Origin: Oculina patagonica
Taxonomy: Eukaryota
Length of the DNA stretch: 64,000 nucleotides
Direction of reading: 5' to 3'
Assembly (NCBI RefSeq): GCF_052425735.1
Contig: NC_135769.1
Coordinates: 14,260,001 to 14,324,000, forward strand
How positions within the stretch are numbered: the stretch's first letter is position 1; every line of letters begins with the position of its first letter. This document shows positions 45,147 to 46,284 of the stretch, one piece after another. The notes below the pieces were generated by a model. It was not told where the DNA came from. It worked only from the letters and a program-made list of their open reading frames with translations, and did not search any database. The position numbers were made by a program, and so were the translations under genes.

Positions 45147-46284
45147 ATGTCTGACTCAGAAGAAGCCAGAGCACGTGGCAGGTCATCTTCTGGAGCGCTG
45201 GATCCTTCCGTTAGTTCCGTCATTCAATCTACCGTTTCCGAATCCATCAGCTCTTTAACTGATAACCTTACGCAGGTTATCGAATCTCGTCTCAGTGATT
45301 TCGCAAAGCGATTTTCCGAGCAAAACAGCTCGTCCGTCGAACAAGCCGTTAAGAAAGCTCGCCGCGAGCAGTATACCTGCAAGAGAAAAGGAAATCAGCA
45401 GCAGCTAGACCACTCTCTCCAAGTTCTGGATAAGCTGGACGAAGCTTCTGATGCTCTCAAACACAAATCCTACGAAAAAGTAAAAGTCGCCGTTGAAGCA
45501 GGTACTGAGTTGGTCTCGAAGCGTATTAAAGCAATTAAATTAGCCGACAAGAGTGAGTTTGGATGGGCGACCGTCAACGAATATTTGTCTGATGAGCTCG
45601 CCTCGGACTCCGACGACGAGAAGAGAATTTACCGGGCCGAGAGGAGAGCCGAGAGGAAAGTGAATAAGGAAAAGCGTCGACGTGTCCGTCTTGTCGAGAA
45701 AGGAAATAGTTCCACTTCTGCATTCCGAGCTGCTTCTTCCCCAAGAAATTCGTCAAGCGATTTGGCTTCTCGTTTTGAGGCTAGGCCAGCTCGTCGATTG
45801 GGCCCTTGTTTTAAGATAAGTATTTAGCACTTTTTCGCTATACTATCTTTGTTCTTTACTTCGTCGATTATGGCGTTGCACACTACCCATAATCCAATAT
45901 TCTCAGTGAATTGCTGTGTTTTGTTGACGTTCTAAGTTAGTGCAGAATATAAAAATATCTGCGGTACGTAGTTTAGCAGATATTTGCTTTCTGCACGATC
46001 TGTATTTCATATTCTCATTGTGTTTTTCACAATGAGGTGTTTCAGGTTACGTCATAGCTGTTAATTGCGTTTCATATAATTACGCCGTTGTCAGTTTGTG
46101 TTCTTCCTTCGGGTCTAAAGACGCCACACGATACACCACTACTTTTTATTTTTATGTTGCGGATATTATTTTAATGTTCGTTCTTTATTGCCTTTTTTGT
46201 TTTCAGTGTGGGGATTATGGTCATTTGAGTGCCTCCTGCACGAAAACCGCGGACACTTCAAAAAGCAACGCTCGCCGTGATTGA
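45147..46284 (+). CDS. gag: DIRS/PAT Gag-like protein, two exons (45147-45815 and 46207-46284), 248 aa if spliced
   Basis: IKLADKSEFGWATVNEY motif. Joining the exons gives the CCHC knuckle CFKCGDYGHLSASC. Acceptor TTTTCAG at 46206; the donor reads ATAAGT in this copy. Confidence 0.8.

Follow-up and report, generated by a model that had tools for sequence, protein, structure and literature searches.

The stretch of DNA analysed, hereafter the window, is 64,000 nt long and carries a 5.05-kb element at 44941-49988. All features of the element lie on the forward strand, in the order A1 - gag part 1 - B1 - A2 - gag part 2 - pol - tyrosine recombinase (YR) - B2. The left split direct repeat, A1 (44941-45142), contains a TATA-like box at 45070-45077 and is followed by gag exon 1 (45147-45815), which opens with the ATG at 45147 and ends in the first half of a zinc knuckle (GPCFK). 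A predicted AT-AG intron of 391 nt (45816-46206) holds B1 (45868-45947), the internal copy of the right repeat, and A2 (45946-46147), the internal copy of the left repeat. Gag exon 2 (46207-46284), assigned from its frame and pN/pS, would supply the second knuckle half and a tail ending in TGA. The pol region (46285-48307) comprises RT and a Dam-type methyltransferase, both found by Pfam above the cut-off (RVT_1, 1e-13; Dam, 1.8e-7), and an RNase H inferred from the layout; its frame is broken near 48155 in the window copy. The last ORF, the YR exon (48645-49663), opens at a phase-1 acceptor, and its first Met comes no earlier than residue ~175. Its Phage_integrase match was weak (E 0.019, below the cut-off), and homologues occupy the same place in other families. 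The right split direct repeat, B2 (49909-49988), was delimited by repeat comparison. An AATAAA (49897-49902) stands upstream of B2 only and is absent upstream of B1.

B1 (45868-~45947) was 97% identical to 49909-49999 over 91 nt, and A2 differed from A1 (44941-45142) at one position. B1-A2 is the circle-junction sequence, and contigs with B joined to A were seen in the contig sets described below. The element shares with Pat1-like elements of the PAT group, order DIRS, the split direct repeats A1-B1-A2-B2, the RT and methyltransferase, and a YR on the same strand as the other genes (PMC4157794). No rve match, the sign of a DDE integrase, was found by Pfam in its ORFs, and the named homologues of its Gag are stony coral proteins. 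By structure, and given trees that hold no named reference elements, we class it as a PAT-like YR retrotransposon from a stony coral; Pat1-like elements have been reported in cnidarians (PMC4157794). The zinc finger that Pat1-like elements have in Gag is present in the window DNA as two halves only; in relatives it is unbroken. Additionally, the internal repeat lies inside gag, whereas in the described forms it lies between methyltransferase and YR (nematode) or after YR, just before the 3' repeat (echinoderm), its position being a variable trait (PMC4157794). Judged from this layout, gag-internal B-A is a new structural form of Pat1-like element.

Genomic copies that are 99.6% alike point to recent movement, and none of the four full-length copies examined had all frames open. 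Solo A-gag-B and A-pol-YR-B units with complete ends also occur (G000:C11:17205856-17206863, C11:16712594-16713603, C11:10109590-10113636, and C8:27347423-27351445); recombination between repeats or integration of sub-circles could be their origin. The flanks 44940/49987 were joined in contigs of 4/4 runs, so an empty site exists elsewhere. A Ty3/Gypsy-type element lies ~200 nt from the PAT element on the minus strand (window 40603-44728). Its end repeats, 139 nt long, are identical, and its ORF of 1197 aa has RNase H and integrase and no RT match in Pfam. To the right of the PAT element, we found a MITE-like inverted-repeat unit with 35-nt arms and a 51-nt GGT-rich tandem array (window 50727-51217 and 51345-52108).

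The predicted non-GT donor and the split knuckle

The first-pass annotation had gag reading GPCFK ahead of a 391-nt segment with ATAAGT as its donor, and this anatomy is exact; gag reads RLGPCFK up to 45815. It also described a stop soon after GPCFK. Such a stop is present three codons on in the window copy, and it is private to that copy; in the other five gag-bearing copies, the unspliced frame continues into B1. The site at 45813-45823, AAG/ATAAGTAT, is a non-GT U1-type site and a predicted weak donor. The first-pass annotation took ATAAGT for a sign that this copy is probably splice-defective and suggested looking for GT at 45816 in other copies. AT was found in all six gag-bearing genomic copies, and AG/GT was found at none of 33 mapped sites. 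These sites come from genomic and metagenomic loci, some of them near-duplicates, and comprise 26 AG/ATAAGT, four other A-starting variants, one TTAAGT, and two from which the site has been lost by a deletion into B (L080 and L106). At the protein level, the half-knuckle motif was found in 60 of the 120 listed proteins (of 321 matches, 90% clustering), and it was followed by IS in 49, LS in five, VS in one, and other residues or a stop in five. Among 150 representatives of 50% clusters, 18 end at GPC(F/Y)x, with IS after it in 13, LS in five, and VS in none; 46 have an unbroken knuckle, one has a broken knuckle, and 85 are without the region. A copy-specific donor mutation is ruled out by the presence of AT or TT across genomic copies, mapped sites, and protein clusters. 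On these comparisons, the unusual donor is typical of the lineage as a whole and does not reflect damage to the window copy.

In 15 hand-picked loci, positions -3 to +1 were invariant, positions +2 to +7 were conserved in 13-15 of the 15, and conservation dropped after +8. The codons at the site are almost throughout ATA for Ile and AGT for Ser, and the tail beyond varies freely, which indicates that the constraint acts on the nucleotides. The donor matches nine of the 11 bases of the U1 5' end of the same genome, a level reached by 7 of 207 background windows. The predicted intron begins with AT or TT, neither GT nor GC, at a site complementary to U1. U12-type AT-AC introns have an ATATCC-type 5' end and an AC 3' end, and the ATAAGT...AG ends do not fit this type. 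Perfect non-G matches to U1 elsewhere (L067, L101, and L110) were not counted, as chance and protein motifs such as ADKS would produce about as many. We also rejected a variant U1 fitted to A or T at +1, as all 12 divergent U1-like genes among 30 of the 33 matches keep A7-C8. These twelve genes (L166-L167 and L169-L178, at G000:C6:36.65-36.72 Mb and C1:25.1 Mb) have TATA-like boxes and 5' ends altered at positions 2, 6, and 9-11. A further 18 U1 copies have the canonical 5' end, most of them in a ~2-kb tandem array.

As first described, B1 and A2 lie wholly inside the 391-nt segment, B1 starting 52 nt in and A2 ending 59 nt before its end. After A2, the segment closes (46148-46206) with a pyrimidine tract and CAG, with no other AG for 86 nt upstream, and 46207 opens CGDYGHLSASC. 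Conservation of this arrangement was borne out: segments of 361-394 nt with a YAG/TG acceptor were found in all 11 loci mapped at both ends. All 12 mapped loci have the YAG/TG acceptor; eight of nine have a stretch of 86-115 nt free of AG ahead of it, and three of six have a candidate branch point (YTRAY, at most 70 nt from the acceptor). For the first 11 codons of exon 2 (eight loci), pN/pS was 0.28 when read in the knuckle frame and 1.31 and 1.18 in the two alternatives; for the last six codons before the donor, it was 0.05 (seven loci). By these ratios, both knuckle halves are under purifying selection, and the two look joined in protein. The selection on both halves and the conserved acceptor lend indirect support to the intron reading and the phase-0 rebuilding of the knuckle that the first-pass annotation had proposed. 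In L083 and L105, the acceptor TAG is an in-frame stop directly before exon 2, so exon 2 is unreachable there by reading through. L101, the sister of the lineage in the RT tree, has a knuckle that is unbroken at the same point.

Exhaustive canonical GT/GC-AG pairing yielded no knuckle-making join in four of nine loci. In the window copy, L002, and L087, canonical knuckle-making joins exist solely through a chance CFQ encoded by the acceptor tract, and they use AGs inside A2. L004 has three such joins and L096 one. By this pairing, the +1 AT-AG join is the only conserved knuckle-making route, although in the window copy, L002, and L087 the canonical joins or the AUG at 46174 could yield a knuckle without an AT cut. 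No joined knuckle of the lineage was found among the 120 listed predicted proteins (of 321), and no fusion at the predicted junctions was found in 11 longer protein matches; both sets are mostly gene calls from DNA, so these negatives weigh little. No intron-less copy was found among 27 genomic matches. The feature is real and conserved, and it is more unusual than the first-pass annotation had it.

Contig evidence and predicted expression of Pol and YR

For the RNA evidence, we used eight contig sets (8 of 16 runs, from five studies), which were presumed by guess to be RNA and have no DNA control. A joint from 45815 to 46207 was found in none of the eight sets, and contigs drop rare forms. 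Unspliced contigs crossed 45816 in seven of the eight runs, and no joints at 45814 or 45501 were found in the eight sets. All six gag-bearing copies carry AT and no contig is spliced at this site, at the contig level the very outcome that the first-pass annotation had named as refuting its reading, although contigs cannot show the absence of a junction. In runs X2, X5, X8, and X14, contigs pass from B into foreign flanking sequence, which fits solo A-gag-B units without an acceptor and weakens the unspliced signal. Taken together, the contigs count weakly against frequent splicing. A hole at 45804-45917 in run X1 is of no evidential value. In run X14, a loose poly(A) end was found ~43 nt into B; the adapter ends in this run are presumably cDNA template-switch sequence.

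Splicing was observed elsewhere in the element, as three GT-AG joins in the contigs. One of them (48303-48645), seen in six of eight runs, removes the intron (48304-48644) that separates pol from the YR exon. A second U1-type site, CAA-G-TTGAGT (46324-46334), was cut at 46326, in the -1 GT register, and joined to 48645 in five of eight runs (three studies) and to 47760 in two of eight. The host does use the G-TTGAGT site in the -1 register. The joint from 46326 to 48645 is out of frame for YR; a +1 TT cut, of which no joint was seen, would be in frame. The splice from 46326 to 47760, which would give a standalone methyltransferase, is in frame from a short upstream ATG and is likely cryptic, as its acceptor AG is missing in three of seven loci.

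The gag frame ends in TGA-CTAG (46282-46288), a predicted readthrough signal leading into in-frame pol. Among 36 loci scored, ten have pol open directly after the stop, with TGA-CTAG in nine and TGA-CCAG in one; TGA-CTAG was found in 0 of 17 loci with an overlapping +1 pol and in three of nine degenerate loci. The loci with TGA-CTAG belong to several PAT families (window 46282-46288; L066, L077, L083, L110-L112, L126, and L136). UGA-CUAG is a known readthrough context (bioRxiv 10.1101/2021.04.18.440353), and UGA readthrough is predicted here from the motif itself. With TGA-CTAG in frame, the spliced RNA would be a Pol message too. For YR, a canonical phase-1 GT site in gag (45499-45509, cut 45501/45502) is in frame with the YR exon. 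AG/GT (E-G codons) was found at this site in 28 of 29 loci and also in most other families, and the YR ORF starts at a phase-1 acceptor in many families. A GagN-YR fusion message from the donor at 45501 is predicted from these sites, and the joint tables of the eight contig sets hold no such gag-to-YR joint. The in-frame TGA-CTAG, the splicing-dependent YR exon, and the independent second family go beyond the first-pass annotation.

That second family (L059-L063 and L192) carries B-A in gag ~45 codons upstream of the knuckle. L192 was considered as a third family and was rejected, as it belongs to this one. In six of six copies, AAG/TTGAGT stands before B-A and a phase-0 acceptor after it. The +1 join gives the knuckle frame in four of five copies tested, and after the -1 GT join it is the pol frame that is read in four of five; the knuckle frame returns in three of five when the canonical -1 GT cut is joined to an AG lying 25 nt upstream. 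A single clade of both families was rejected (p-AU 0.0017) in an AU test on a quick tree, with 16 rows taken from the 35 of a first tree and the group named once that first tree had been seen. By these trees, B-A entered gag twice, in two unrelated families. For the sister TT subfamily, no full-length copy was found, and five genomic matches were without exon 2 in the stretches read. Within one genome, B-A is found in gag, between pol and YR, and after YR (L064-L077, L187, and L191). In nine loci whose B-A lies outside gag, B1 is not preceded by a strong U1 site (scores of 6-7.5 vs 8.5-9), and we therefore rejected the idea that U1 binding ahead of B1 is a general guard against early poly(A) addition.

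The proposed splicing model and its alternatives

In the PAT model, the outer ends are missing from the RNA and are rebuilt from the internal B-A. A poly(A) end within B and a TATA-like box within A both fit this scheme. Movement of DIRS-1 requires an internal complementary region (PMC7192593). Because B-A is needed to rebuild the ends, an RNA without it should be a dead end, in keeping with the finding of no intron-less copy among the 27 matches. We consider it probable, at roughly 0.6, that the 391-nt segment is a weak AT-AG intron, removed from a minority of transcripts and acting as a rheostat between message and genome; the splice itself we infer. U1 would bind nine of 11 bases, and the major spliceosome would only occasionally cut at +1. 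Full Gag would be made from the spliced RNA, as would Gag-Pol by UGA readthrough; lacking B-A, this RNA could not rebuild the ends. The unspliced RNA would keep B-A and be the replication template, served in trans. A further splice, also removing B-A, would provide YR. A canonical GT would remove the replication signal too often, which would account for the avoidance of G at this position. Non-canonical donors rank GC>TT>AT>GA in human reporter and RNA-seq data, and human sites of exactly the same form are used weakly, at both +1 and -1 (PMC6280755), which favours rare +1 AT-AG splicing. The genome/mRNA switch by splicing suggested in the first-pass annotation gains indirect support from the selection on both halves, the conserved acceptor, and the poly(A) loose end in B.

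It is unlikely that no AT splicing takes place at all. The site would then only bind U1, for example delaying early poly(A) addition in B1; gag exon 1 would encode a knuckle-less protein, and the source of the knuckle half and Pol would be RNA that starts in A2 or solo A-pol-YR-B units. This would agree with the unspliced contigs in seven of eight runs, the contigs running from A through 46207, the existence of both types of solo unit, the AUGs at 46174 and 46342 in the subfamily of the window element, and the blocking of early termination by U1 in the Copia element EVD (PMC5580714). However, AATAAA is found before B2 only, and a strong U1 site ahead of B1 is missing from the nine loci whose B-A lies elsewhere than in gag. 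In L083, a stop precedes exon 2 and the pol linker lacks a Met. The selection on both halves, the matching phase, and the conserved acceptor would also be left unexplained. A cut in the -1 register, with GA or GT first, appears quite improbable as the main use of the site. It would mostly feed an out-of-frame sink, with in-frame protein arising by recoding or by a rare +1 cut. GA ranks below AT, although human reporters cut TT sites at both -1 and +1 (PMC6280755). The joints at 46326 do follow the -1 GT register in five of eight runs, and G at -1 is invariant. Yet the corresponding joint at 45814 is absent from the eight contig sets, a cut in the GA register of the gag site would miss the knuckle frame, and, by inspection, the product stops within a few codons, with no slippery heptamer at the join. 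The -1 join of the second family opens the pol frame in four of five copies, but that overlap in pol frame also exists in intron-less relatives.

Corals have ADAR activity, and A is the commonest state at +1, so that A-to-I editing might turn the first A into a G-like base and make a normal donor. We regard this as very improbable: the predicted pairing partners differ among six of six loci, so there is no shared helix; TT sites are not editable in such a manner; and no A>G change at 45816 was found among the contig rows listed. Little credence can likewise be given to a splice-dead lineage moved by the proteins of other families, which would extend the idea of a defective copy to the whole family. 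The purifying selection on exon 2, the donor and acceptor conserved across 18 clusters, and the recent movement indicated by the 99.6% alike copies oppose such an explanation, even though no contig shows the gag splice and none of the four full-length copies examined is fully open.

Returning to the AT-AG intron, we propose a broader reading only tentatively, and we lean against it at present. PAT elements may have hidden the junction twice, independently, in a gag intron whose non-GT donor became fixed on both occasions as a splicing rheostat, with all catalytic proteins made from non-replicable spliced RNAs and acting in trans on the unspliced genome. A one-base shift between the -1 and +1 cuts of the TT family would then be a spliceosomal frameshift, giving Gag-Pol or full Gag.

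Retroviruses preserve a pool of unspliced genomic RNA by balanced splicing with suboptimal splice signals, and gag-pol readthrough is also retroviral. In orthoretroviruses the unspliced RNA encodes Gag-Pol, whereas here it would encode neither full Gag nor Pol. In the Ty1/Copia element EVD, as proposed here, splicing divides the RNA into a Gag message and the full-length form, and the balance depends on how strong the 5' site is (PMC5580714). However, the donor of EVD is canonical, its spliced RNA is Gag-only, and its unspliced RNA gives Gag-Pol; the spliced RNA of the coral element would make both, and its predicted intron holds the end-rebuilding repeat behind a non-GT donor. The non-canonical U2-type TT/AT 5' sites described in PMC6280755 have the same form (xAG/NNAAGTAT), weak use, and the choice between -1 and +1. 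Those are rare or mutant sites in human genes, whereas here the site is conserved in a transposon lineage. The stop context is the same as in the UGA-CUAG readthrough of bioRxiv 10.1101/2021.04.18.440353; here it is followed by in-frame pol, and readthrough is predicted. No description of readthrough of the UGA-CUAG type in DIRS/PAT elements, nor of a non-GT gag intron holding B-A, was found in the searchable literature, which does not cover the core reviews and Repbase, so that PAT introns may have been described before. The word intron is absent from the main text of PMC4157794 and from the available text, supplements excluded, of PMC3266345, PMC3783388, PMC9210276, and PMC6681497.

Little has been established about the means by which YR retrotransposons produce Gag, Pol, and YR and keep message apart from genome, and these elements offer exact predicted junctions that can be tested: a non-GT gag intron, a UGA-CUAG readthrough, and a spliced YR exon. 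If the AT-AG reading is true, a lineage-wide AT/TT donor under selection would be a rare non-canonical splice site kept for tuning and would provide a natural test bed for AT-AG splicing and for the choice between the -1 and +1 registers. Missed introns may then account for some of the PAT elements described as having lost the Gag zinc finger.
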